A stretch of 64,000 nucleotides of DNA from Ostreococcus lucimarinus (taxonomy: Eukaryota). Positions 4,314 through 17,674 of this stretch are shown in pieces (the stretch's first letter is position 1; every line of letters begins with the position of its first letter). The notes under the pieces were generated by a model that had not been told where the DNA came from, did no database searches, and worked only from the letters and a program-made list of their open reading frames with translations. Made by a program: the position numbers and the translations under genes. The DNA is taken from the NCBI GenBank assembly GCA_000092065.1, contig CP000592.1; one strand, given 5' to 3'.

Positions 4314-6329
4314 TCACCCTTGTTCCATTTTCTGCGAGAGAATCTTGAAGCGTTCTTCGGCGGCGACTCTTTCGCGCAACTCTTTCGCGCCTTGACGATC
4401 GGGGTGGAAGCGCAACAACGCTTTCCTGTACGCGCTACGTAGTTGCTTCGCGTTCGCGTGCGCGCCACCTTCGACCGCGACGCCGAAACACTCGAGAGTC
4501 TCCGCCAAATTTAACGAAGCCACCTTCGTCTCCCATTCTCGTCTAAATTCTTCCCTAATTGAGTCGGTGCTTTGCTCTTCTTCGTGTCGACTCTCCCGCG
4601 CTTCCCGAAACGTCGCGACTCTACTTTCAGCGGCTTTGATCAAATCTTCAGCCGCCTTTGCTTTTTGCTCTTCTCGCCGCCGGCGTTGCGCTTGCGATTG
4701 CTCCTCTTGCTCCGCAGCCTTGATAAGCGCTTGTGCGTCGATTTCCTCCCGCCGCCGCGCAAGAATCGCGCCAACGGCATCGCTGACGATCCATTTCTTA
4801 CTCACGAGCATGTTGAACACTTCTTGTAGCAAAACAGGCTCCCCCAAGCCGCGCGAGTGCGCCGCGTCGTCTTCCAACACCGCCCCGAGAGCGTTGCAGA
4901 GCAGATTGGCGCGCTCGGAACCGTTTTCAGCCAGCTTGAACGCGGTTTGCGCGCTCTTTAACGCTACTCCATGCGCAATCGCAATGGCCGATATCAATTC
5001 CGCGTTTGAATCGTCCAAGAACTCTGTTTCCTCTTCTCTCGCAGACGTCGGCGCCGCCGCCGCCTGCGACTGCGTGCCCCGGGCGAACGACACTAAATCG
5101 TCGATGGATGAGTTCGACCCCGTTGCGAGCGGCGATTTCGGAAGCTTTTCTAGCGGCGACTTGCCCTTGTCTGCGCGCATACTCGACATGGTCGGCTCTT
5201 TTCGCGAGTGCGTGTACGTGTACGGAGGCGGTGTCGGCGGCGCACCGTCGAAGTCTGGTTCGGAGCACGGTTTCAGCGTTCCCGGACACAGCATCAAATC
5301 TACCCACATGTCAGATCCTTCCTCGGCGAAAATAACGCGAGCCGAATTTCTCCCACAGTAGTACTCCCCACGAACTAATCGACACGGCACGCCCGCGCTC
5401 GCCGCTAAAGTTTTGAACAAAATCGCTCGATGGCGTTCGACTCCCTTGGATAAATGCCCGACATGCAGACAACATCCCGACTGACTGCTCGCGTTCAACA
5501 GCTGCTCGCGATCCTCCGCCGTCGCGAGCACAAGGGTTGGATCGTCGATGGTCTTCACGGACCCGCCCAAACGATCGCTCACCAATCTGGCCAGCGCAGC
5601 GCACCGGGCCCGTACGTTCGGCACCTGCGAGCACGTCTCCCGCGCCAACTCGTCGAGCGCGTTCAAAAACATATCCGTGCGCCTGTCCACGACGAAAACT
5701 TCCTCCGTCGCCGTGACCGGTGGCCTCTTGAGCAGATCTCCGAGCGCGGGCAATTGTCCATCCACTGAACTCTCGAACGCGTCGCCCCAGACGTCGTAAA
5801 ACCCGTCGCACGTCTCATCCAAGACTTCGTCCGCGTCGAGCGCTTGCGAGATCCAAAACTTTGACGCCAAGCTTTGCCCCTTACCCCGTCCTTTTCCCGC
5901 GGCATCCGCGGCATCAAATTCCAGCTCCACCGCCAGCACATCCGCGCTCGTCTCTTTCGTGCTCGCCTCGAGCGCGAACTGCATTTCGCGCGCGTCGAAG
6001 CCATCCGTTCGCGCGCGCGCCGAAGCCGTCGCGCGCGCAGCCGTCCCGCCCGCGTCCAGCGCGTCCACTTGGTACATCGCCGACGCCGCCTCGTCCGTCG
6101 ACATCGGCGGCGCCGCGCGCATCGCGTTGACGGTAAACGGCGCGCCCGCGCCATCGCCGCGCTCTTTTCGTCGTTTCAGTCGCGCTGCGTCGCGACGTTT
6201 GCGATTGATTACGTCAGTCCTCTGGTGGTTAAAAGTTGACCGAACGCGCGTCGTCGCGTCGTCGCGCGCGTCGAGCGCGCGTCGAGCGCGTCGAGCGCTC
6301 CGAGACGTACACTTTATCGATTTGAGCAT
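4314..6329 (-). CDS. Protein with an EDR1/CTR1 N-terminal-type domain and a C-terminal DnaJ (J) domain; no kinase domain
   Basis: The central block FWISQALDADEVLDETCDGFYDVWG ... GHLSKGVERHRAILFKTLAASAGVPCRLVRGEYYCGRNSARVIFAEEGSDMWVDLMLCPGTLKP matches the EDR1 domain found N-terminal to plant CTR1/EDR1 kinases. The C-terminus LRSAYRKALLRFHPDRQGAKELRERVAAEERFKIL is a J-domain with the HPD motif. Confidence 0.6.
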   Translation of the reverse strand: MLKSIKCTSRSARRARRALDARDDATTRVRSTFNHQRTDVINRKRRDAARLKRRKERGDGAGAPFTVNAMRAAPPMSTDEAASAMYQVDALDAGGTAARATASARARTDGFDAREMQFALEASTKETSADVLAVELEFDAADAAGKGRGKGQSLASKFWISQALDADEVLDETCDGFYDVWGDAFESSVDGQLPALGDLLKRPPVTATEEVFVVDRRTDMFLNALDELARETCSQVPNVRARCAALARLVSDRLGGSVKTIDDPTLVLATAEDREQLLNASSQSGCCLHVGHLSKGVERHRAILFKTLAASAGVPCRLVRGEYYCGRNSARVIFAEEGSDMWVDLMLCPGTLKPCSEPDFDGAPPTPPPYTYTHSRKEPTMSSMRADKGKSPLEKLPKSPLATGSNSSIDDLVSFARGTQSQAAAAPTSAREEETEFLDDSNAELISAIAIAHGVALKSAQTAFKLAENGSERANLLCNALGAVLEDDAAHSRGLGEPVLLQEVFNMLVSKKWIVSDAVGAILARRREEIDAQALIKAAEQEEQSQAQRRRREEQKAKAAEDLIKAAESRVATFREARESRHEEEQSTDSIREEFRREWETKVASLNLAETLECFGVAVEGGAHANAKQLRSAYRKALLRFHPDRQGAKELRERVAAEERFKILSQKMEQG

Positions 6330-6464
6330 GCCGCGCGACGCGCGAGACGCGCGCGCGTGTGCGGGAGTCGGGAGAACGCGTCGGGACCGGAGCGGGACGC
6401 GCGAGCGCGTTTTACGCGTTACATGCGTCGCGCGCGCGACGTCGAAATTTGCGGGCGCTAGTTG

Positions 6465-6479
6465 CTAGATTAAAGACGA

Positions 6480-6518
<39 letters not shown>

Positions 6519-7184
6519 GGGCGCCGGCGTCGGCGCGCCGCCCGCGCTCGCCGACGACTTGGCCACGCACAACCACCCCAGAAACACGTACATCAACATC
6601 ACCGGATACACCGCCAGCGCCCTTCTCGACGCCGGCATCGCCGCGCTCACGAACGGCACGCTCGCTTTACTGCTCCACGTCACCGCCGCCGCGACGACGA
6701 TGAATCTGTACACCTTATTCTCGCTCGCCAGGCACAGCGCGCTCGCCAGGCACAGCGGCACCACGCAGTACCCCAACAGCGCCACGCTCTGCAAGAATAT
6801 GATCTTCCCGCCCAGCAACAGCACGTTCGCCGTCAGCGCCACCGCGCCGAGCCCGACCGTCGCGAAGACGACGCTGAACGTCTCGCTCGCGTTCGCCGCG
6901 CCGCCGCTCAGCGTCGCGCTCAGCGTCAGCACGAACGCCAGCGGTCCCCACAGGTCCCACTCTCGCAGCCGCGTCGCGCCGTTCGCCCCCCAGTTCATCG
7001 GCAGCAGCACCGCCGCGCAGTTTCGCCGCACCACGGCGCAATCGCGCCTGACGGTGGCCCAAATCGTTTCATCCAGCGTCCCGAACGCGAGATCGCTCGT
7101 CTCGCTCGCGCCCACGCGCGCGCGCTCGATCTCGTGCTCGCGCGACGCGAACAGCGGCACCGCGTCGCCGAGCGCGCCGTTCAT
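6465..7184 (-). CDS. YIPF6: Yip1-domain protein (YIPF6-like), ending in a (Thr-Pro)n tail
   Basis: LREWDLWGPL..., LLGGKIIFLQSVALLGYCVVPL and RRALAVYPVMLMYVFLGWL match YIPF6 conserved blocks, with 5 TM segments. The C-terminal PTPTPTPTPTP is encoded by a hexanucleotide repeat. Confidence 0.7.
6483..6540. repeat. (GGCGTC)n hexanucleotide microsatellite lying inside the 3' coding end of the Yip1 gene, where it encodes (TP)n
   Basis: Direct tandem repeat gcgtcggcgtcggcgtcggcgtcggcgtcggcg visible in the sequence. Confidence 0.7.
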
Positions 7185-7327
7185 CGCGCGGCGCGAGTCC
7201 GCGCGCGCGCGATGCGCGGTCGCGATGTGACGCGACGGCCGATGATGCCCTAACGCGCGTCACATCGCGACCGCGCCTCGCGCGCGCGTCCGCGGCGCGT
7301 CGCGGCGACGCGATTCGACGCGCGCGA

Positions 7328-9028
7328 ATGTTCGCGACCGCGCGCGCGCCCGGCGCGGCGGCCGGCGCGGCGACGCGCGCGACGCGACGGGGAAATCAAC
7401 GCGAGGGCGCGACGACGCGCGCGGCGACGACGACGACGCGACGCGCGATGCGCGTGCGCGCGCGCGCGGCGTGCAAACTGACCACGTCCGTCATCGCGCC
7501 GAACCTGGAGCTCGCGCTGCGGGACGTGGACGACGCCGTGAGGAAGGGCGCGGACGTCGTGGAGCTCAGGGTGGATTTCTTGCGCGACGACGCGGCGCGC
7601 GGGACGCTGGGCGACGCGATCGAAGCGCTGATTAAAGCGTCGCCGGTGCCGGTGATCGTGACGAATCGACCGACTTGGGAGGGAGGGCAAGATGATGGGG
7701 ACGAGAGCGCGCGGTTGGAGGCGCTTTGGAGGGCGCACGAGTGCGGGGCGGCGTACGTGGATTGCGAGGCGCTCGCGGCGGAGCGATTCTTCGCGGCGAA
7801 ACCGGCGACGGCGACGCTGAGGAATGGGAAGACTAAGATCATTTTGAGCTCGCATAATTACGATGAGACGCCGAACGATGAGATTTTGGCGGAGATTCAC
7901 GCGAAGTGCGTGCGCTTGGGGGCGGATATCGTCAAGATGGCGTCGGTGTGTAACGCGGTGGAGGACGTGGCGCGATTGGAGAAGCTCTTGCGCACGAAGG
8001 GAAGGGAGATCGAGACGATCGTTTTGGGCATGAGCGAGCACGGACAAGTGTCTCGATTGCTCGCGGCGAAGTTTGGAAGCTTTTTGACGTTCGGGGCGAT
8101 TCGAAGAGGGGAAGAGAGCGCACCGGGGCAGCCGTTGCTCGAAGAGCTGCGAGATTTGTATCGCGTGCCGACGCAGACGGCGGCGACAAAGGTGATGGGC
8201 GTGATCGGGAACCCGATCGGACACAGTAAGTCACCGGCGTTACACAATCCTTGTCTCGCCGCCGCGGGCGTGGATGCGTGCTACGTCCCGTTACTCGTCA
8301 AGGATATCAAAACCTTTCTCGCGTCGCCGCTCTTCGGGTCGAAGGACTTTGTGGGGTTTAGCGTGACGATTCCGCATAAGGAAGACGCCTTGGAGTGCTG
8401 CGCCGAGGTCGACCCCGTGGCGAAGCAAATCGGCGCGGTGAACACGTTGGTTCGTCAACCGGATGGATCGTTAAAGGGTTACAACACCGATTATGTCGCC
8501 GCGATCGAGGCTATCGAAAACGCGATGGAGAAGAAAACGGGCGTCGCCGCCGCGAAGTCCTTGGCTGGGAAAACAGTCGTCGTCATCGGCGCCGGCGGTG
8601 CGGGCAAGGCTTTGGCGTTCGGCGCTAAGTTTAAGGGCGCCAACGTCGTCATCGCCAATCGCAGCGTCGAGCGCGCACAGGCGCTCGCTGACGCGTGCGG
8701 CGGCGTCGCGGTGTCGCTCGAAGATTTAGCGAGCGGTAGCGTCGTCGGCGACGTCTTGGCCAATAGCACCTCGGTCGGGATGCAACCGAACGTTGAAGAC
8801 ACGCCGACGCCAGCGTCTGTACTCGGAGGGTTTTCCGTCGTCTTCGACGCGGTGTACACCCCGCTCGAGACGCGGCTCTTGCGCGAAGCCAAGGCGAGTG
8901 GGTGCGAAATCGCGAGCGGGCTGGACATGTTCGTCGGGCAAGCGGCGAGGCAGTTCGAGCTCTTCACCGGGAAAGAGGCCGAGGTTGAGCTCATGCGCGA
9001 CGCCGTGTTGTCGAGCATAAAAAGGTAA
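7328..9028 (+). CDS. Bifunctional 3-dehydroquinate dehydratase / shikimate dehydrogenase (plant-type DHQ-SDH) with a plastid-like transit peptide
   Basis: The N-terminal half is a type I DHQase (VVELRVDFL, AAYVDCE, KIILSSHNYDETP, KMASV). The C-terminal half is a shikimate dehydrogenase (GVIGNPIGHSKSPALHN, GAVNTL, NTDYVAAIEA, VVVIGAGGAGKALAFGA, ANRSVERAQALA). The N-terminus is Ala/Arg/Thr-rich. Confidence 0.88.
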   Translation: MFATARAPGAAAGAATRATRRGNQREGATTRAATTTTRRAMRVRARAACKLTTSVIAPNLELALRDVDDAVRKGADVVELRVDFLRDDAARGTLGDAIEALIKASPVPVIVTNRPTWEGGQDDGDESARLEALWRAHECGAAYVDCEALAAERFFAAKPATATLRNGKTKIILSSHNYDETPNDEILAEIHAKCVRLGADIVKMASVCNAVEDVARLEKLLRTKGREIETIVLGMSEHGQVSRLLAAKFGSFLTFGAIRRGEESAPGQPLLEELRDLYRVPTQTAATKVMGVIGNPIGHSKSPALHNPCLAAAGVDACYVPLLVKDIKTFLASPLFGSKDFVGFSVTIPHKEDALECCAEVDPVAKQIGAVNTLVRQPDGSLKGYNTDYVAAIEAIENAMEKKTGVAAAKSLAGKTVVVIGAGGAGKALAFGAKFKGANVVIANRSVERAQALADACGGVAVSLEDLASGSVVGDVLANSTSVGMQPNVEDTPTPASVLGGFSVVFDAVYTPLETRLLREAKASGCEIASGLDMFVGQAARQFELFTGKEAEVELMRDAVLSSIKR

Positions 9029-9107
9029 GCGTGTAGCGGCGTTGTTGGATACAAAATGCGATAATAATATTCTTACAACGAGACATTGTACAGCGCGCTC
9101 GTTCGTC

Positions 9108-9929
9108 TTACGCCGCGAGTTCGAGCGCTTCGAGCGCCTTGGCCGCGAGCGCAGCCTTTTGCGCCTCTTTCGCCGCGTGCTCCTCTTCGCGTCGACGCAA
9201 GCGCGCCGCCGCCTTCGCCGCTTCCTTCTCCTGTTTTTTCTGCTTGCTCTCCGCCCGCTTCGCGCTCTTCGGACCGAGCTTGCCCGGCGACGTCGACCGC
9301 GCCGAGACGCGTCGTCCATCGTCCCCGACCGCCCTCGGCGCCGACGCCGGCGACGCCGACGCCTCCCCGTCGTGTTTCGGCGGTTTCTTCTTCGCCGCCG
9401 CCGTCGCCGCCGGCTCTTTCCCTCGCCCGCTCGCCGTCGGTCGCGCGTAGCTCCTCGAGCCTCCGTTCGACACGAACCCCCCTCGACCAAACTTTCGATT
9501 CCCCAGCACCAGCCTTCGCGCGCGCCCCCGCATCAGCGCCTCCTCCAGCGCATCGCTCCCATCGCTCCCGTCGCTCCCGTCTCGCCCGTCCTCGTCGCCG
9601 TCGTCCCATCCCTCGCCCTCGCGTCCCCTCGTCGCCCACCGCGCGCGCCGCAGCAGGCACAGCGACTCCTCCTGCATCCCCCCGTCCTCGAGCGCGCGTC
9701 CGTCCAGCGCGCGTCGCACCAGCACGCGCTCGCACGACGCCTGGCACAGCGGGCACCGCGTCCGCGCCCCCGCGCGCGTGAACTCGGCCCACTTGGTCAC
9801 GCAGGACGCGCAGAACGCGTGCAGGCACGCCACGACGAGCGCGACGTCGCGCGCGTCCGGGCGCGCGAGGCAGACGGCGCACGTCGGCGACGCGCGCGCG
9901 TCGTCGTCGTCCGGCGCGACGCGCGACAT
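9108..9929 (-). CDS. RING-finger (C3HC4) protein with Lys/Glu-rich C-terminal coiled-coil
   Basis: CAVCLARPDARDVALVVACLHAFCASCVTKWAEFTRAGARTRCPLCQ is a RING signature. The ORF extends upstream to 10664 as antisense of the EamA gene, so the start was set at the Met immediately before the RING (ATG 9929-9927). Confidence 0.5.
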   Translation of the reverse strand: MSRVAPDDDDARASPTCAVCLARPDARDVALVVACLHAFCASCVTKWAEFTRAGARTRCPLCQASCERVLVRRALDGRALEDGGMQEESLCLLRRARWATRGREGEGWDDGDEDGRDGSDGSDGSDALEEALMRGRARRLVLGNRKFGRGGFVSNGGSRSYARPTASGRGKEPAATAAAKKKPPKHDGEASASPASAPRAVGDDGRRVSARSTSPGKLGPKSAKRAESKQKKQEKEAAKAAARLRRREEEHAAKEAQKAALAAKALEALELAA

Positions 9930-10151
9930 GGCGCGCGCGACGTCGCGCGGCGCGACGGCGAGTGCGGCGCGCGTCAACGGATAAGCCGCGCGACGCGACG
10001 CGACAGCGCGACGCGCGACGCGCGCGAACGGCGCGACGACATGCGAGCGACGCGCGCGGGGATTTATCTCTAGCTCTTCGCGGCGCGCGCGCGGCGCGAG
10101 GGCGCGCGCGAGGGCGCGCGCGGGACGGCGGCGGCGGCGGGACGGGACGGG
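9930..10151. promoter_or_regulatory. Putative bidirectional promoter region between the divergent RING (-) and EamA (+) genes
   Basis: A 222-bp head-to-head intergenic gap. Similar short divergent gaps occur at 1393-1625, 7185-7327, 55104-55201 and 58982-59433. Confidence 0.3.
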
Positions 10152-11165
10152 ATGGCGACGGAAAAAGACGCCGAACGCGGCGACGGGACGCTCGCGAGGC
10201 GGTCGAGCCTGAGCGAGAGCTTCAGCGAGCACGATCGAGGGCAGATCGTGAATCACGCGGCGCTGTGGACGGCGCAGTTGATTTGGGCGCTCATGCACGT
10301 GCTGAGCCACGACGCGCTCGAGCACGTCGAGCCGACGGCGTTCTGCGCGCTCAGGCTCGCGCTGGCGCTGCCGTTTCTGGCGATATCGGCGAGGAAGGAG
10401 GGCGGGAGTCTGCCGTGGCGCGCGGTCGCGACGTGGGTGGTGCCGATGGGGGCGATGATCGGCGCGGCGTATCTGTTGGTCTTCGTGGCGAACGCGCGCT
10501 CGGGACCGACGCTCGTGGCGTGCGTGCAGCCGATCATGCCGGTGTCGGTGGCGGTGATGAGTTATGTGATAGGATTGGAGCGCATGACGCGCGTGAAGGC
10601 GCTGGGCGTGATCGTCGTTTTCGCGGGAACGGTCACCGCGCTGCGCGCGTACGAAATTTTTCAAACGGGCGGGATGAATTTTTTGGACATCTTTCTCTTG
10701 CTGTCGCAGACGAATTCGTACGCCGTCTACGTCGTGATGCTCGGCGTGGCGACGAAAACGTACCCGTATCCATTGCTGTTCTTATTCCTCGCCACCGCCG
10801 TGGCCGAGTTCGTCGTCTTGCTCATCGCGATTCCGGCGTTCGCCCGACTCGACGTCTCCCGCGTTCCCGCGTCCGCCTGGGGCGCCGTCGTCTTCGCGGG
10901 ATGGGGCTCGTCCGTCTTCGCCCACTCCCTGAATTCTTGGGCCGTCGCTCGCGTCAAGGGCGTCTTGCCCACCGTCTACTCCGGCGTCCAAGTCATCTTC
11001 ACCATCGTTCTCAGTCGCGTGTTCCTTCGCGAGCGTCTGCCGTGGGATCGAGGCGTCGGCATCGCCGTCACCATCCTCGGCGTCTGTTTAGTCGCGCGCG
11101 CCAAGTACGCCGAGACGCCCGACGCGACGCGTCGCGACGCGCCCTCGCGCTCGTGCGGCGCATAG
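10152..11165 (+). CDS. EamA/DMT-superfamily membrane transporter
   Basis: About 10 predicted TM helices arranged as a duplicated EamA-like unit. It sits head-to-head with the RING gene across a gap of about 220 bp. Confidence 0.55.
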   Translation: MATEKDAERGDGTLARRSSLSESFSEHDRGQIVNHAALWTAQLIWALMHVLSHDALEHVEPTAFCALRLALALPFLAISARKEGGSLPWRAVATWVVPMGAMIGAAYLLVFVANARSGPTLVACVQPIMPVSVAVMSYVIGLERMTRVKALGVIVVFAGTVTALRAYEIFQTGGMNFLDIFLLLSQTNSYAVYVVMLGVATKTYPYPLLFLFLATAVAEFVVLLIAIPAFARLDVSRVPASAWGAVVFAGWGSSVFAHSLNSWAVARVKGVLPTVYSGVQVIFTIVLSRVFLRERLPWDRGVGIAVTILGVCLVARAKYAETPDATRRDAPSRSCGA

Positions 11166-11364: not shown

Positions 11365-13026
11365 ATGTCGCACGCCGCGCACCTCCGCCGCGCGCTCTCG
11401 CGCGCGCTCTCGCGCGCGAGCGCCGCGCGCGCGCCGCTCGGCCCGGTCGCGAACCCTGGAGCGACACCCGATCGCGCCGCCGCGCTGAAGCGCGACGCGC
11501 TCCGCGCCTACGCCACGGGCCCGGCGCGACACGAGAAACAAATCTCCGACGATCTGCTCGCGAAGCTCGGCGGGCTGTCCACGCAGGCGCTGATCGATGG
11601 ATTGTGGGTCATGGGATGGCCGACGAGCCACGTGATGGGCGCGCGACCGCTCACGGAGGGACAAAAGAAACTGGTCGGACGCGCGGTGACGCTTCGATTC
11701 GTGCCGCAGCGACCGGATATCGCGGCGAGTAAACCGGCGGGGATGGAATCGCCGGAATACGAGGCGTTTGAACAGACCGGGCCGAACGAGTGCGTGGTCA
11801 TGGAGAGCGTCGGGCCGTGGGAGAGCGTCGGCGGCGATATCAAGTTTTTACGATTGGCGCAGCTTAAATGCGCGGGATTAGTGACCGATGGAAGCGTGAG
11901 AGACACCGCGGTGTTGCGGGAGTACGGATTTCCGGTGTTTTCGATTTCGACGACGCCGAGACAAGGACCGCACGTGCACCAGCCGTGGGAGGCGAACGGC
12001 GTCATCACGTGCGGCGGCATCGTCGTGCGACCGGGCGACGCGATCATCGGCGATCAAGACGGCGTTGTCGTTATTCCAGCGTCTCACGCGCAGGAAGTGT
12101 ACGATATCGCGCACTCTCGAGAGATTGTCGAGGATATCGTGAAGACGGAGCTCGCGACAAATCCGGGTCCGCCGGGCAAATTTTATCCGTTTGTGAGCGG
12201 CAAGATCAAGAAGGACTCGCCGTTGTGCAAGTTGCTCGCGAGCAAGGGCTACGACTCGAGCAAGTTTGCGCACACCGCCGCGAACCCGGGCGCTCGCGCC
12301 GGTCTCGGTGGTATTCCGAAGAGCCGCAATACGCTCGGCGCGCGCAGATCGATGAGCCAACAAGTTCGTCACAAGTCGTACATGCGAACCGACGCCGAGT
12401 TCAACGAAGTGCTCGATCAGTTTGCCAAGCACAAGGCGTGTGCTGTCCTCCGCACGGGAGTCGAAGGTGCGGCGTACAACGCCATGGACGCCGCCGTCCA
12501 AGGCGGCTTCAAGCTCGTTGAATTCACCCTCACCACCCCAGGCTGCCTCGACGCGGTTTCCCGATTTGCCTCCCGCACCGACGTCTTGACCGGCTGCGGT
12601 ACTATTCTCAACATCGACGACGCCAAGAGAGCTTTGGACGCTGGGTCGAAATTTATCGTTGCTCCGATTTTGATTCCGGAAGTTGTCGAGTGGTGCGCGG
12701 CGAACAAAATCGTCTGCATCCCGGGCTGCCAAACCCCGAGCGAGTTGTACCGCGCGTACAGCCTCGGCGCCCCCGTGCAAAAGCTCTTCCCGGGTGTCGC
12801 CGGTGGCCCTAACTGGGTTCGCGCCGTCGCCTCGGCGCTTCCGATGCTTCGAATCAACCCGACGTCGGGCGTCGAAATCGACACCGCCGCCGACTACTTG
12901 CGTGCGGGCGCCGCCTCTCTCGGTTTCGTCGCCCCGGCGTTCGATCAAAACGCCATCAAGGCGGGTGATTGGGACGCCATCTCCAAGCGTGCGACTGAAA
13001 TTATTGCCGCCGTGAAGGCCGCGTAA
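11365..13026 (+). CDS. Two-domain fusion: an N-terminal RraA-like (4-hydroxy-4-methyl-2-oxoglutarate aldolase / oxaloacetate decarboxylase fold) domain and a C-terminal KDPG/KHG aldolase (Eda-like) domain
   Basis: The N-terminal half (GRAVTLRF..., LVTDGSVRDTAVLREYGFPVFSISTTP, IIGDQDGVVVIPA) matches the RraA/MenG fold. The C-terminal half (VLRTGVEGA..., LVEFTLTTPGCLDAVSRF, GCGTILN, IVAPILIPEVVEWC, IPGCQTPSE, KLFP) matches the Eda TIM-barrel aldolase. The product is 553 aa with an Ala/Arg-rich N-terminus. Confidence 0.7.
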   Translation: MSHAAHLRRALSRALSRASAARAPLGPVANPGATPDRAAALKRDALRAYATGPARHEKQISDDLLAKLGGLSTQALIDGLWVMGWPTSHVMGARPLTEGQKKLVGRAVTLRFVPQRPDIAASKPAGMESPEYEAFEQTGPNECVVMESVGPWESVGGDIKFLRLAQLKCAGLVTDGSVRDTAVLREYGFPVFSISTTPRQGPHVHQPWEANGVITCGGIVVRPGDAIIGDQDGVVVIPASHAQEVYDIAHSREIVEDIVKTELATNPGPPGKFYPFVSGKIKKDSPLCKLLASKGYDSSKFAHTAANPGARAGLGGIPKSRNTLGARRSMSQQVRHKSYMRTDAEFNEVLDQFAKHKACAVLRTGVEGAAYNAMDAAVQGGFKLVEFTLTTPGCLDAVSRFASRTDVLTGCGTILNIDDAKRALDAGSKFIVAPILIPEVVEWCAANKIVCIPGCQTPSELYRAYSLGAPVQKLFPGVAGGPNWVRAVASALPMLRINPTSGVEIDTAADYLRAGAASLGFVAPAFDQNAIKAGDWDAISKRATEIIAAVKAA

Positions 13027-13115: not shown

Positions 13116-15023
13116 TTACTTCCTACTCGAACACGAAAAAACCGTCGGTCGATAGTTCGGGACATACATGGTTGAATACACGTACTCGCTCATCGCTTCC
13201 TCGCCCTGCGCGACGATGTGACGAATGTCTTCCGGCACTCGACCCTCGCGCGCGGCGGCTTCGATGACCTTGATCGCAACGTACGCCGAGATATCGCGGA
13301 TGCGATCGATACGCGGAAAGATAGTGCCTTCTGTGTATTGTTCGGGCGTGAGCATAGCTGGGATAGCCATCGCGGCGGCTTGAAGCATCGCGTCGGAGAT
13401 GACAGACGATTTCGACAGCAACGCACCGAGACCAAGTCCGGGAAAGACGTAAAAGTTATTGCCCTGATTCGCCTTCATCACTCTGCCATTAATCTCGACA
13501 TCGCTGAACGGCGAACCAGATGAAAAGATAGCCCTTCCGTCAGTCGCGTTCGCGGCGTCCTCCGCCGTACATTCGGCACGAGACGTCGGATTTGAGAGCG
13601 GCATGATAATCGGGCGCTCGTTTATTTTACCCATTTCCTCAAGCACCTCCTTCGAAAATAGCCCCTTCACCGTGGAAACGCCGAGTAAAACCGTGGGTTT
13701 CGCCTTTTTAATCACGTCCATGAGCGACGCGCCCTCGGGCATGTCGTTTCGGTTGCGTGCGAAACCTTTCAGCGGCTCCTGTCCGGGATCGTCCAACGCG
13801 CGTTCGGCGGTGACCAGCCCGTTGGCGTCGATGATGTAAAATCTCTTGTATGCTTCCTCGGCCGTCAATCCATTCGCAACCATAGCTTGGTGTAGGAATG
13901 ATGCTATACCACATCCCGCGCTTCCAGCGCCGCACATGACGAAGGTTTGTTTGACAATATCCTTGCGATGACCATGAAGACACTTCATCGCTCCGTACAC
14001 GCCGGCTAGGACGACGGCCGCGGTGCCTTGGATATCATCGTTGAAGCACAGAACTTCATCGCGATAGTGCTGCAAAATTTTGTTCGCGTGCTTCGTTTGA
14101 AAGTCTTCGAACTGAATCAACGCGTTTGGCCACCGGTTTCGCACGCCGCGAATAAACTCCTCCACAAACGCGTAATACTCCTCACCTTCCAGTCGCTTGT
14201 GCGGCGACCCGAGATAATAGGGATCGTTCAAAAGATCTGGATTGTTCGTGCCAACGTCGAGGACGACTGGCAAAACATGCTGCGGATCAAAACCACCCCC
14301 GGCGACGTACAGGTCCAATTTCCCTTGCGAAATTCCCATACCATTCATGCCGAGATCGCCCAAACCCAAAATCCTCGACCCGTCGGTGACCACTATGACG
14401 GAGACGTTCCGTTTCCAGTTGAACATCATCGAGTTAAAATCGCCCCTATCCTCGCGCGAAAAGTACATCCCTCTCGCCCGGCGCAATAACTTTGAATATT
14501 CAAGGCACGCGTCTCCGACCGTCGGCGTGTAAATCACCGGCGCTAATTCCTCGATGTGATCGTGCACCAGGCGATAAAACAACGTCTCGTTACGATCCTT
14601 CAAATCTTGAAGGTGACTCCACCGATCCAGCGGACGCTTCAGCGCTTTATTTTGCGCCCATATCTTCACCGCTTGCTGTCCGATCGTGAAGAACCGCGGC
14701 GGCACGAGCCCGCGAATGCCCAATCGTTCGCGTTCGCTCGCGCTGAACCCGGTGCCTTTATTGTATATGGGATTGTGGAGCACCTCGATGCCGCGCGACG
14801 TGTCGGGATGCATCACCACCACGTCGTCCACCGCGCGCCTGTGACTGTTCGTCCCGATGGGTTCGATCATGCTCGACGCTCGCGAGCGCTCGTCGTCGTC
14901 GAGCAGCGCGCCGACGGCGTTCGACGACGCGGTGGTCGTTGCCGCGTCGCGCGCGAAAATCGACGCGGTGCCGCGCGCGGTGGACGCGAGCGCGCGCGAG
15001 CGCGCGACGGACGCGGAGAGCAT
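13116..15023 (-). CDS. NAD(P)-dependent malic enzyme, preceded by a transit-peptide-like N-terminus
   Basis: Strong matches along the whole length: VVTDGSRILGLGDLG, FEDF, FNDDIQGTAAVVLAG, VMCGAGSAGCGIA, PIIMPLSNPTSRAEC, NNFYVFPGLGLG. The ORF continues upstream to 15326; the start was set at Met 102 (ATG 15023-15021), where the transit-peptide-like sequence begins. Confidence 0.9.
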   Translation of the reverse strand: MLSASVARSRALASTARGTASIFARDAATTTASSNAVGALLDDDERSRASSMIEPIGTNSHRRAVDDVVVMHPDTSRGIEVLHNPIYNKGTGFSASERERLGIRGLVPPRFFTIGQQAVKIWAQNKALKRPLDRWSHLQDLKDRNETLFYRLVHDHIEELAPVIYTPTVGDACLEYSKLLRRARGMYFSREDRGDFNSMMFNWKRNVSVIVVTDGSRILGLGDLGMNGMGISQGKLDLYVAGGGFDPQHVLPVVLDVGTNNPDLLNDPYYLGSPHKRLEGEEYYAFVEEFIRGVRNRWPNALIQFEDFQTKHANKILQHYRDEVLCFNDDIQGTAAVVLAGVYGAMKCLHGHRKDIVKQTFVMCGAGSAGCGIASFLHQAMVANGLTAEEAYKRFYIIDANGLVTAERALDDPGQEPLKGFARNRNDMPEGASLMDVIKKAKPTVLLGVSTVKGLFSKEVLEEMGKINERPIIMPLSNPTSRAECTAEDAANATDGRAIFSSGSPFSDVEINGRVMKANQGNNFYVFPGLGLGALLSKSSVISDAMLQAAAMAIPAMLTPEQYTEGTIFPRIDRIRDISAYVAIKVIEAAAREGRVPEDIRHIVAQGEEAMSEYVYSTMYVPNYRPTVFSCSSRK

Positions 15024-15190
15024 CGCACGTCGCGTCGGTCGCGTCGACTGGATCCGCGCGGGAGCGCGGCGTCGACGTGTGGCGTCGCGATTTGGGTTTA
15101 TCTGCTTTCCCGGCGACGGGGACGGGACGGGACGGGACGCGACGAACGCGACGGAATGTAGACTATCGATTGAAACGATTATGGCTAAGG

Positions 15191-17674
15191 CTATTGCTTC
15201 AATCGAGCCTTGATTTCGTCGGTGTCGCCGTACCAGTGCTCGAAGACGCCGATGGCGTGATGGATGACGTCGAGACGGCGGCGAAGGTCGGCGGCGCGCG
15301 CGGCGGCGCGATCGAGCGGGGGACATCGGGCGTCGGCTCGCGCCTCAGCGCGGCCGCGCCTACGGAAGACGAAGGCGACGCTCATGCGTGGTGGATCTGG
15401 GCTGTCGATTTCACACGCGCTGCCCCAGTGGATGATGTTTCCTGACCATGCGAGGAGGGCGCCGGCGTCGACGGGGGCGAGGGGCTTGGCGGCGCCGCGA
15501 GGCACCTCGGGGGCGGATTTTGAAACGTCACTTCGCCCACCATCTTCGTCGTCTTTCTTCGACACGACGTACATGCACCCACTTGTTTCCGTGACGCGGT
15601 TCAACGGGAGCCAAAGGCTGAGGACTTGCGTTTTACCATCTTCGTCGACGGCGTCCGAGAGGGAGTAGTCGCGATGCGGAACGCCAAAGTTGTTACCGAT
15701 GTAACGCTTCCCAGATGCGTCTTTTTCGAGCTTGAACGCGGCAACGGATGGTTCTAACACGCACTCACCGCCAAGTAGGACCTCCGCGTGCGCGAATAGC
15801 AAGTCGATGACACGCCAGGCAACGTCGGAAACGAATATGCACGCCGGCGGCCACTTGGCGTCGACGAGCGCCTCGATGCCGCTGCGGAGCGCGTTGGTAT
15901 CCTTAATCGGCACGATAACATCGCCCCACACGTAGCCGTTCTCTTGTAGCGACGCCACGTGCTCTTGCGTTGCGCTAGCGTCGATTTCACTCACGGTCGC
16001 ATCGCTGTTGCTTGACACCGCGCAGCCGTGCGTGCTTAAAATGGCGTTCCAGTAGGTTGCGTCGAAAACGTTCGTCGAAATTGCCTTTCCCGGAGCTGCA
16101 TCTTCGCCCTCGTCTCCGAACGCGTCCCATGCCGAGTTCTTGTCATCGATCGCTGGTAAATTTCGTACGTCCTCGTCCTCGTCGTTGGCGGCGTAATCGA
16201 GCACAGTAAAGTGCCCGTGTGTATCGACATCAGCGATGCGATAAGGAAATCGAGCGGCGTCGGCGCCAAGCTTTTCTCGCAGTCGCGCGTGCCAGTGCTC
16301 GGGATGAAAACTTTCAACATTCTTCGACGGGTCGAACCAAGTGCATACGATATCGCGTTCTCTCACATCGCTCGTTGCGCTCGTCCTCGTACGCTTTTCT
16401 GGCCGACTTTCCACGTCCTCAAAAGTGACGTCGGCGGGATCTCGCAGCAAGTGCGCATTGTCGCCCAGCGCCTCCAAAGCGGATCCATTCATGCCCGATA
16501 ACGCCAAAACACCGGTATCGGCGTTGATAAGCGTTCGTACACGCAGTACGATCGTCTCATCGTCGCCTTGTGGCCAAGATCCTACGATGGCGTCGTACTT
16601 GGCGCCGCTCGCGCGTTCGAGAAAATCTAAAAAGTCTTCGCTCCAAACTCTAATCTCCCCGCGAGCGCCTGCATCGCTCGCGTGCACCTTTTTATCACAT
16701 CGCGTGCACTCCAAACCAAAATATTTCACCATCAAGTCCACGACCGTGCCATCTTGTTCGACGACGTCGACGCGCGTCTCCGGTGAGTACGTGCGCATGA
16801 ACGACGCCACGGCGGCGCCTCCGGCGCATCCCAGCGCCAACACCCTTCGCACTGGACCGTCCCCCGGCGATGCCATCGCCACCGCGACGTACGTCGCATC
16901 TCTCCACGAATCTAACGCCAATCCGAGCGGTTCGTTCGGGTCCTTTTCCGCCTCGACTGCACCGTCGCTCCCTCTCCACGGGCCGCGCACGAGCGCTCTC
17001 GTGCATTCGCCCCCGGACCCATCCTCCACCGCCATATCGATCACACTCAGCGCCTCAAGCCCACTGTCTTCCGCTCTTTCCACGTGCTCAATGACTTCTA
17101 CGCTCCACGTCAACTTCCCAGTGCGCGCGTCGACCCCCAACGGCGTCACCAACGTCAACGTCTCGATCAACAACGCAAACGTCCAACGCTCCTCCGCGTC
17201 CAATTCATCCTGTGCTCTCAACGTCGGCGTCGTCGCGCTCGCCATCCCGCTCGACGAATCCACGAAAATCGGTTGTCCGGTGCTCTCGTCGAGCTCCACC
17301 TGATACCCCTCGTTCTCGAGCAATCCATTCGCGACGCCGCCGAGTTCGCTCAAAACCAACAGCGCGCCGTCGCTCGCCGCGAGCGCGTCCGCGTCCGCGC
17401 TCTCCACCGGTGCCCCCGTCGCGCTGTCGCGCTCGACCGCTTGCACGGACCTCAACAAAGGCACGACGCACCCCGACGCGCACAGCGCGAGCGCCCAAGC
17501 GGCGCCGTGACCCTCGTCGCCGATGCGCAGCTCGAGCAGTGATTCCGCGGCGGCGGCGCGTTCGCGCGACGATGGCGACGACAAACGGGCGACAAACGAG
17601 CGCAGACTCGCGGTAGAGTCGACCGACGGCGATGCGCGCGCGGTGTCGCGCGCGTCGTCGCGCGGGCGAGGCAT
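15191..17674 (-). CDS. Large multidomain protein with a central class-I methyltransferase / spermine-synthase-like segment and a C-terminal PhyH-like 2OG-Fe(II) dioxygenase-like segment
   Basis: VLALGCAGGAAVASFMRTYSPETRVDVVEQDGTVVDLMVKYFG resembles a SAM-binding/spermidine-synthase fold. The C-terminal FGVPHRDYS...IIHWGS resembles PhyH. Overall the homology is weak. Confidence 0.4.
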   Translation of the reverse strand: MPRPRDDARDTARASPSVDSTASLRSFVARLSSPSSRERAAAAESLLELRIGDEGHGAAWALALCASGCVVPLLRSVQAVERDSATGAPVESADADALAASDGALLVLSELGGVANGLLENEGYQVELDESTGQPIFVDSSSGMASATTPTLRAQDELDAEERWTFALLIETLTLVTPLGVDARTGKLTWSVEVIEHVERAEDSGLEALSVIDMAVEDGSGGECTRALVRGPWRGSDGAVEAEKDPNEPLGLALDSWRDATYVAVAMASPGDGPVRRVLALGCAGGAAVASFMRTYSPETRVDVVEQDGTVVDLMVKYFGLECTRCDKKVHASDAGARGEIRVWSEDFLDFLERASGAKYDAIVGSWPQGDDETIVLRVRTLINADTGVLALSGMNGSALEALGDNAHLLRDPADVTFEDVESRPEKRTRTSATSDVRERDIVCTWFDPSKNVESFHPEHWHARLREKLGADAARFPYRIADVDTHGHFTVLDYAANDEDEDVRNLPAIDDKNSAWDAFGDEGEDAAPGKAISTNVFDATYWNAILSTHGCAVSSNSDATVSEIDASATQEHVASLQENGYVWGDVIVPIKDTNALRSGIEALVDAKWPPACIFVSDVAWRVIDLLFAHAEVLLGGECVLEPSVAAFKLEKDASGKRYIGNNFGVPHRDYSLSDAVDEDGKTQVLSLWLPLNRVTETSGCMYVVSKKDDEDGGRSDVSKSAPEVPRGAAKPLAPVDAGALLAWSGNIIHWGSACEIDSPDPPRMSVAFVFRRRGRAEARADARCPPLDRAAARAADLRRRLDVIHHAIGVFEHWYGDTDEIKARLKQ

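Follow-up and report, generated by a model that had tools for sequence, protein, structure and literature searches.

A putative mitochondrial tandem precursor joining an RraA-like lyase and an Eda-type aldolase in Ostreococcus lucimarinus

The mitochondrial processing peptidase cuts the tandem precursors Arg5,6, Atp25, Rsm22-Cox11 and rice RPS14 at presequence-like junctions (Friedl et al. 2020, PMC8734313). Here, we describe a gene of the green alga Ostreococcus lucimarinus, located on the plus strand at 11365..13026 of a 64,000-nucleotide stretch of contig CP000592.1 (assembly GCA_000092065.1; hereafter 'the window'), whose product may resemble these precursors. It would be a nuclear-encoded mitochondrial precursor joining two different pyruvate-forming 2-oxo-acid lyases, an RraA-like part (R) and a class I aldolase of the 2-keto-3-deoxy-6-phosphogluconate (KDPG)/4-hydroxy-2-oxoglutarate (KHG), or Eda, type (E), with a linker that would derive from the mitochondrial presequence once carried by the downstream partner, its processing-peptidase motif kept. 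The precursor would enter the mitochondrion as one chain, from which the processing peptidase would then release two enzymes, as it does with yeast Arg5,6; such cleavage would give equimolar co-delivery of R and E. The R-E fusion would also be one arrangement of a three-part module of photosynthetic protists, the third part (Q) being a zeta-crystallin-type NADPH quinone/enone oxidoreductase. To this reading as a whole, an imported R-E mitochondrial precursor within an R/E/Q module, we assign a probability of about 0.6.

As in tandem precursors of the yeast Arg5,6 type, R-E begins with a presequence and has a second, presequence-like stretch with a processing motif where its two enzymes meet, and, again as there, other species make and target the two enzymes separately. 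The differences lie in the partners and in the status of the junction: Arg5,6 comprises enzymes of arginine biosynthesis and is known to be cut, whereas R-E and the related R-Q fusion comprise lyases and a reductase, and their processing sites are predicted. RraA-like domains are also fused to enzymes in prokaryotes. The bacterial FAH-RraA-like fusion (NF009399/PRK12764, against which R scores 139 vs 444) and the hexulose-6-phosphate synthase-RraA-like fusion (NF005442; R scores 76 vs 593) likewise join an RraA-like part to a carbon-carbon lyase, hydrolase or hydratase acting on 2-oxo/keto acids; both are prokaryotic, and their partner domains and domain order are unlike those of R-E.

The gene consists of one uninterrupted open reading frame (ORF) of 553 codons plus a stop, without internal stop or frame break, in which presequence, RraA-like domain, linker and Eda domain follow one another; its translation is identical to a protein (P0122) that occurs on 83 public contigs. 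The full protein aligns gap-free with more than 40 homologous fusion proteins, so no intron need be invoked, and both halves are present in complete MMETSP transcripts of other species (P0027, and P0150 from Micromonas pusilla CCMP1545). The reference protein of O. lucimarinus CCE9901, XP_001420689.1 (a 'predicted protein' of 214 aa), is identical to aa 340-553 and holds the Eda half only, starting at the internal Met340 (nt 12382-13026), which would suggest that the longer frame is an artefact, a mechanical ORF call reading through two genes. We consider this scarcely credible and rejected it: no stop separates the halves, Met340 is replaced by V or L at the equivalent position of the fusion alignment in other species, the 339 codons upstream of it align over their full length with homologs and are clearly conserved at the protein level, in M. 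pusilla and another alga a complete transcript covers both halves, and the fusion is kept in more than 40 clusters. For these reasons the full-length fusion is, on comparative evidence, the better gene model, and we flag the model in the O. lucimarinus reference annotation as apparently truncated by 339 codons.

The closest characterised relatives of the N-terminal half are enzymes of the RraA fold. The HMG/CHA aldolase of this fold cleaves 4-hydroxy-2-oxo-dicarboxylates to pyruvate and decarboxylates oxaloacetate, with Arg-123 as an essential enolate-stabilising residue and Asp-124 and Glu-199 as metal ligands (PMC5065237), and a further member, FlDet, is a 2-keto-3-deoxyglucarate dehydratase/decarboxylase (PMC8563752). 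In the window protein, a domain of this type spans aa 58-296 (11536..12252, plus strand; Pfam core nt 11632-12072), as indicated by profile, PDB sequence and Foldseek searches. The Pfam profile PF03737 matches aa 90-236 (E 1.8e-28, 100.1 bits vs a gathering cut-off of 24.5), and the half finds 5x15 (E 3e-24) and the HMG/CHA aldolase 3noj (E 1e-11) among PDB sequences. An AlphaFold2 model of the whole protein, built on 14 homologs, was compared with known structures by Foldseek, with template-modelling (TM) scores normalised to the target; its N half, for which the confidence score (predicted local distance difference test, pLDDT) is only moderate, reaches TM 0.84 to 5x15, the Streptomyces coelicolor RraAS2, and 0.73 to 3noj, the Pseudomonas putida HMG/CHA aldolase/oxaloacetate decarboxylase (LigK/GalC). 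The length of the domain is that of the long RraA-like forms of PF03737, about 240 aa, while identity to solved RraA-like members is only 23-30%. R differs from its RraA-fold relatives in a conserved C-terminal tail (NPGPPGKYYPF...SPLGKLL; in the window NPGPPGKFYPF...SPLCKLLASKG), in being eukaryotic with a mitochondrial-type presequence, in being joined to Eda or to a quinone oxidoreductase, and in lacking an aromatic-degradation context.

Three residues suggest what kind of protein R is. R179 and D180 (nt 11899-11904) and E256 (nt 12130-12132), all on the plus strand, are invariant in 14 fusion proteins and align with Arg-123, Asp-124 and Glu-199 of 3NOJ, so that R shares with the HMG/CHA aldolase the Arg-Asp pair and distal Glu responsible for binding Mg2+ and for stabilising the enolate of pyruvate. 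Because this triad is both invariant and aligned with that of the HMG/CHA aldolase, the comparison argues for a metal-dependent (class II) enzyme of the RraA/HMG-CHA-aldolase fold and not for an RNase regulator. NCBIfam equivalog scores place R outside the characterised LigK/PcmE group (NF006731, 64.3 vs 179; TIGR02798, 59 vs 304.5, both below cut-off), and its best NCBIfam match is the uncharacterised model PRK08245. Since its closest solved structure, RraAS2, is described as an RNase ES inhibitor, R could alternatively be a non-catalytic regulator like RraA or RraAS2 (inhibitors of RNase E/ES), modulating an RNase or the attached aldolase. That is very improbable, considering the invariant Arg-Asp...Glu triad, a score of 32.4 vs a cut-off of 136 for the RraA equivalog NF006875, bacterial relatives of 65-74% identity that often lie directly downstream of a same-strand reductase gene, and the enzymes that R has as partners in fusions and neighbourhoods; on these grounds we rejected the RNase E-inhibitor assignment.

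The C-terminal half carries a class I KDPG/KHG aldolase domain at aa 340-553 (12382..13023, plus strand; Pfam core nt 12424-12987), recognised by profile, PDB and Foldseek searches. PF01081 matches aa 354-541 (E 4.9e-33, 114.7 bits vs a gathering cut-off of 27.8), the Thermotoga KDPG aldolase 1wa3/1vlw is found among PDB sequences at E ~1e-31, and the AlphaFold2 model gives a confident TIM barrel (pLDDT ~90) with TM 0.92 and a root-mean-square deviation of 1.7 A to 1vlw/1wa3. R363, E386, T413 and K473 do not vary across the fusion alignment, and the first two and the last of them correspond to R17, E40 and K129 of the Thermotoga maritima enzyme (1wa3 numbering). We take K473 (nt 12781-12783, plus strand) to be the Schiff-base lysine and E386 the general-base glutamate, by comparison with 1WA3 and 1EUA; E shares with the T. 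maritima (1WA3) and Escherichia coli (1EUA) enzymes the TIM barrel, the lysine of the Schiff base, the glutamate base and the pyruvate-site Arg and Thr. Two loops set the clade apart. Where the Thermotoga enzyme has PTGG and GVGS, the window protein has PTSGV (aa 499-503) and GFVAP (aa 520-524), with PTSG[VT] in 110/110 and G[LF]VAP in 109/110 of the clade members scanned; we presume these positions to correspond to the KDPG phosphate-binding loops of the E. coli enzyme. The score against TIGR01182 is 136.1 vs a cut-off of 156.05, and the remaining Eda NCBIfam models likewise stay below cut-off.

The nearest relatives of E outside the fusions are standalone proteins of ~250 aa, ~60% identical, from diatoms (Seminavis, Cylindrotheca, Odontella, Helicotheca) and Chrysophaeum, whereas prokaryote-like relatives reach at most ~44% identity. 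By alignment and fold, E is best described as a Schiff-base class I KDPG/KHG aldolase. It is the ortholog of 'EDA', the mitochondrial aldolase of diatoms in the Entner-Doudoroff (ED) pathway proposed for eukaryotes, which has a presequence of like kind; unlike Eda and diatom EDA, E is the C-terminal half of a fusion. An earlier note on the window, made from its letters and ORFs, had proposed a single polypeptide fusing an RraA-family half to an Eda aldolase, and each of these assignments stands: the frame is unbroken and homologous transcripts carry both halves, and the two profiles score far above their cut-offs, with the 5x15/3noj and 1vlw matches agreeing. We therefore hold the two-domain architecture and the catalytic competence of both halves together to be highly probable. 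As a separate observation, one standalone member of the Eda clade (P0114, 317 aa, ENA) shows a ~60-residue internal duplication, with AAPKAM..GGFKIAEFTLTTPGCLD..DGDVMVGCGTIM occurring twice; this may reflect either faulty assembly or a genuine tandem duplication.

Motifs of the R-x-[FYLM]-A type are the classic -3R motif of the mitochondrial processing peptidase. In the window protein, aa 1-49 (11365..11511, plus strand) form a predicted mitochondrial presequence, as indicated by disorder, composition and this conserved motif, which occurs as R47-A48-Y49|A50 (nt 11503-11514, plus strand), with presumed cleavage after Y49. The AlphaFold2 model leaves aa 1-57 disordered save for a helix at aa 4-16, with pLDDT <50 in the presequence, which holds 9 Lys and Arg against 2 Asp and Glu. 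N-terminal extensions of R proteins, fused or not, are 30-45 aa long, rich in Arg, Ala and Ser and nearly free of acidic residues; R-x-[FYLM]-[SAT] is found in 50/59 of them, typically as R-x-[FYLM]-A directly before 'xGPA'. The same motif is present in 80/97 presequences of standalone E and 52/58 of standalone Q, typically at the end. R, E and Q thus all carry predicted presequences of mitochondrial type, and the organellar location that had been suggested from the N-terminus of the window protein can be narrowed to the mitochondrion, which we consider very likely for this protein. The diatom ortholog of E agrees, the EDA of Thalassiosira pseudonana having been detected in a mitochondrial-fraction proteome (PMC6683858).

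The linker between the two domains (aa 297-339; 12253..12381, plus strand), delimited by pLDDT and composition, resembles these presequences. It is disordered at aa 300-336 in the model (pLDDT ~27-30), holds 8 Lys and Arg and 1 Asp or Glu, and contains a -3R motif match, R328-S329-M330|S331 (nt 12343-12357, plus strand). Pooled unique R-E linkers are rich in Ala, Ser, Gly and Arg, with 1.3% Asp and 0.4% Glu, and are unconserved except for R-x-[FYLM]-[SAT], which in most lies 4-16 residues before the first Eda helix. This motif occurs in 39/44 unique R-E linkers vs 9.6 +/- 2.6 in shuffled sequences (0/2000 shuffles reach 39) and in 25/25 R-Q linkers vs 5.1 +/- 2.1, although the sequences in both tests are related, so the shuffle statistics overstate their independence. 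R-Q linkers end in 'RRHMSS-VPATMK', matching the end of standalone Q presequences, '...R-x-[MLF]-S-x-VP[SA]TM'. Because the presequences of standalone E and Q end in the same motif, we read the linkers, on this resemblance, as retained presequences of the downstream partners, and the preservation of a cleavage motif while the rest of the linker drifted suggests selection.

Whether the precursor is cut internally after import is, in our estimate, evenly balanced. The earlier note had envisaged an uncleaved bifunctional enzyme, in which one mature chain passes an intermediate between its sites, and the linker motif would then be a relic or a phosphorylation site. Such a protein would be in keeping with a fusion that forms a single old family at >=50% identity and has been retained in green algae and Pavlovales alike. 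Both parent families form trimers, so that the geometry would also permit a fused trimer. The basic R-x-x-S of the linker resembles basophilic kinase sites and, being conserved, could be one instead of a processing site, and a flexible linker of 43 residues would also allow both domains to assemble uncleaved. Against an uncleaved enzyme stand the conservation of R-x-[FYLM]-[SA] alone in an otherwise drifting linker, a similarly short distance from motif to mature N-terminus in standalone imported Eda and Q orthologs, the occurrence of the same partners as separate proteins in a diatom-like alga, and the want of any obvious chemistry for two successive aldol cleavages of one substrate. We regard the uncleaved enzyme as possible but the weaker of the two proposals. 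As candidate cases, R-E and R-Q extend the small set of mitochondrial fusions whose precursors the processing peptidase may cut internally.

The R-E fusion is widespread among algae. Both domains stand together in about 50 clusters at 90% identity, contributed by Mamiellales, a Pycnococcus-like alga, Tetraselmis, Prasinoderma and Pavlovales. Micromonas, Prasinoderma, Tetraselmis and Pavlovales account for the clusters that have a name or stem from a eukaryotic database, and a neighbouring gene (in locus L088) points to a Pycnococcus-like source for another fusion, P0023. All full-length fusions fall into one family (P0010) at 50% clustering, and among the best 150 representatives clustered at that identity none was an independent, for example bacterial, R-E fusion. 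The proposal that such a fusion had not been described as a single protein needs correcting, as databases already list it under the name 'demethylmenaquinone methyltransferase/aldolase' in M. pusilla CCMP1545 (XP_003055404.1) and Pavlovales sp. CCMP2436 (KAJ1633887.1). Literature searches for an RraA and KDPG aldolase fusion, and for this database name together with Micromonas, found no paper on the fusion, the first yielding the FlDet paper alone and the second nothing; a wider one on HMG aldolase in algae turned up nothing of relevance. It is accordingly a protein already in databases under an uninformative name, uncharacterised but not a new kind of system. What is new here is the linkage of R, E and Q, the apparently presequence-derived linker, within which a processing site is probable, the connection with the 'ED' aldolase of diatoms and the truncated reference model.

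Further support for a common role of the two halves comes from algae in which they are encoded apart. In a diatom-like alga, standalone R and standalone E genes lie head-to-head, 520-600 bp apart, each with its own mitochondrial-type presequence (L094 6618-8780, L095 1774-3936, L096 1584-3744); this standalone R is 66% identical to the N domain of the window protein and 85% identical to an Amphora protein. In many other algae R is instead fused to Q (PF08240/PF00107/PF13602), as in P0057, in P0073 of Hemiselmis andersenii and in ~40 other clusters; one such fusion lies at 8001-9989 of locus L092. Standalone Q genes in turn lie head-to-head with the R-E fusion in two unrelated lineages, Pavlovales (CCMP2436, MU631394.1; L087 6509-10187) and the Pycnococcus-like alga (L088/L089, ~6071-9785), 251 and 667 bp apart, and these neighbouring Q genes are 64-75% identical to the fused Q domain. 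Orthologs of Q with 66-84% identity are found in Pycnococcus, M. pusilla, Fistulifera and Ditylum.

The module would thus take several forms: R-E fused in green algae and Pavlovales, R and E as a divergent pair in the diatom-like alga, and R-Q fused in cryptophytes and others. For the R-E pair as for the R-Q pair, some lineages show a fusion and others divergent neighbouring genes. A shared function of the three is thereby suggested, and for eukaryotes this combination is unusually strong genomic evidence. We consider that R, E and Q probably form a conserved functional module of photosynthetic protists; the functional link between the halves that had been predicted for the window protein is likewise upheld by their fusion in some lineages and their head-to-head arrangement in another. 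One Q ortholog, that of M. pusilla (L097 8001-11549, GG663737.1), is convergent with a glucose-6-phosphate dehydrogenase gene. This could be a coincidence, though that enzyme supplies NADPH and 6-phosphogluconate precursors.

What the module would do is less certain. Eda cleaves KDPG and 4-hydroxy-2-oxoglutarate, and zeta-crystallin-type reductases reduce quinones and enones. We tentatively propose 4-hydroxy-2-oxo-(di)carboxylates and/or oxaloacetate as substrates, among them 4-hydroxy-2-oxoglutarate, HMG (4-hydroxy-4-methyl-2-oxoglutarate) and oxalomalate; such adducts would arise from pyruvate, oxaloacetate and glyoxylate, R and E would return them to pyruvate, and Q would reduce an unsaturated or carbonyl product. 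A bolder idea, which we put forward as a speculation with the odds well against it, is that R/E/Q make up an unrecognised mitochondrial pathway of photosynthetic protists for aldol adducts of glyoxylate, pyruvate and oxaloacetate. In a carbon-conserving version, E would join pyruvate and glyoxylate to 4-hydroxy-2-oxoglutarate, R would dehydrate this to 2-oxoglutaconate and Q would reduce the latter with NADPH to 2-oxoglutarate; in a second version, the three would clear inhibitory adducts such as oxalomalate, 4-hydroxy-2-oxoglutarate and parapyruvate. If this is true, the diatom 'mitochondrial Entner-Doudoroff aldolase' belongs to an R/E/Q pathway and not to glycolysis, and the R-E and R-Q fusions would be polyprotein precursors that the processing peptidase cuts.

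Besides the kinase-site resemblance and the flexibility of the linker, several points weigh against the precursor-and-module reading. The 64-kb window holds no detectable Q ortholog, and no third partner lies near the R-Q locus L092 or the M. pusilla Q locus L097. For R, the NCBIfam equivalog cut-off is reached for no characterised subfamily, and everything beyond fold and residues we infer. An eda gene lies beside bacterial R in 0/80 loci (tblastn), so that R-E has no evident operon ancestor. Diatom EDA and EDD are reported to be functional by bacterial complementation and assay, with KDPG aldolase activity for EDA (Fabris 2012, as summarised in PMC3901268). The reported KDPG activity fits ordinary ED glycolysis without need of R or Q.

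In that case, E would be a mitochondrial KDPG aldolase, splitting KDPG to pyruvate and glyceraldehyde-3-phosphate, and R an accessory oxaloacetate decarboxylase or an unrelated passenger. The ~60% identity of E to single-copy diatom 'KHG/KDPG aldolase' proteins and the presence of EDA in the T. pseudonana mitochondrial fraction speak for this assignment as well. Other reports fit it poorly: EDD is predicted to be plastidial, not mitochondrial, in most diatoms, and EDA, a single-copy gene found in every photosynthetic diatom examined, has been lost from the two non-photosynthetic Nitzschia studied, which still require glycolysis (PMC9292941). A literature search for 6-phosphogluconate dehydratase (EDD) in Ostreococcus gave nothing usable. 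An ED scheme does not accommodate the conserved ties of R to both E and Q, which take several forms, and E scores below the TIGR01182 cut-off. The clade's PTSG and G[LF]VAP loops also differ from the PTGG and GVGS of the Thermotoga enzyme, though the phosphate role of these loops is presumed and the diatom ortholog is reported to cleave KDPG. We judge ordinary ED glycolysis unlikely as the explanation of the fusion, but still a serious rival. As EDA is reported to be lost with photosynthesis and EDD is mostly predicted to be plastidial, a photosynthetic or photorespiratory role would fit better than mitochondrial glycolysis. Ostreococcus, Micromonas, diatoms and haptophytes rank among the main primary producers of the sea, and E is the enzyme on which the diatom 'mitochondrial Entner-Doudoroff pathway' rests; its ties to R, and via R to Q, together with its reported loss with photosynthesis, give a testable reason to re-examine its role.

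The R half has close relatives in bacteria. The closest prokaryotic ones, at 65-74% identity, belong to marine SAR202/Dehalococcoidia, including Candidatus Lucifugimonas marina (locus L003, NZ_CP046146.1, 7019-8648), followed by Rokubacteria/Methylomirabilota at ~60%. In a neighbour-joining tree, 15 eukaryotic R sequences form one clade beside these bacteria, which a single transfer, or extreme conservation, would explain. An identity of 65-74% is unusually high for a bacterium-eukaryote pair. We collected 80 bacterial loci (L001-L080) and scored the neighbours of R in the 65 with a recognisable R ORF. A ketopantoate-reductase-family gene (PF02558 plus PF08546) lies directly upstream of R on the same strand in 34/65, and a PEPCK-like gene (763 aa), itself preceded by an OCD/mu-crystallin gene, holds this position in 8/65. 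A distant MDR/QOR-type reductase gene was found near R in 4 loci only, directly downstream of it in 2 of these. By gene order, then, an association of R with NAD(P)H reductases recurs in bacteria.

Other genes surround the fusion gene in the window. On the minus strand, a malic-enzyme gene with a long N-terminal extension (13116-15326) is convergent with it, with 89 bp between the stop codons, and this adjacency is kept in Micromonas and a Bathycoccus-like alga, so in all three Mamiellales genera. Because the surrounding gene order (Yip1, dehydroquinase/shikimate dehydrogenase, RING) is likewise common to Ostreococcus and Micromonas, we treated the malic-enzyme adjacency as synteny and did not count it as functional evidence. 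Upstream of the fusion gene are a bifunctional dehydroquinase/shikimate dehydrogenase whose N-terminus resembles a transit peptide (7328-9028, plus strand), an EamA-family transporter (10152-11165, plus strand) and a RING-finger protein (9108-10664, minus strand), whose Arg/Lys-rich, GC-rich coding region yields many overlapping spurious ORFs.

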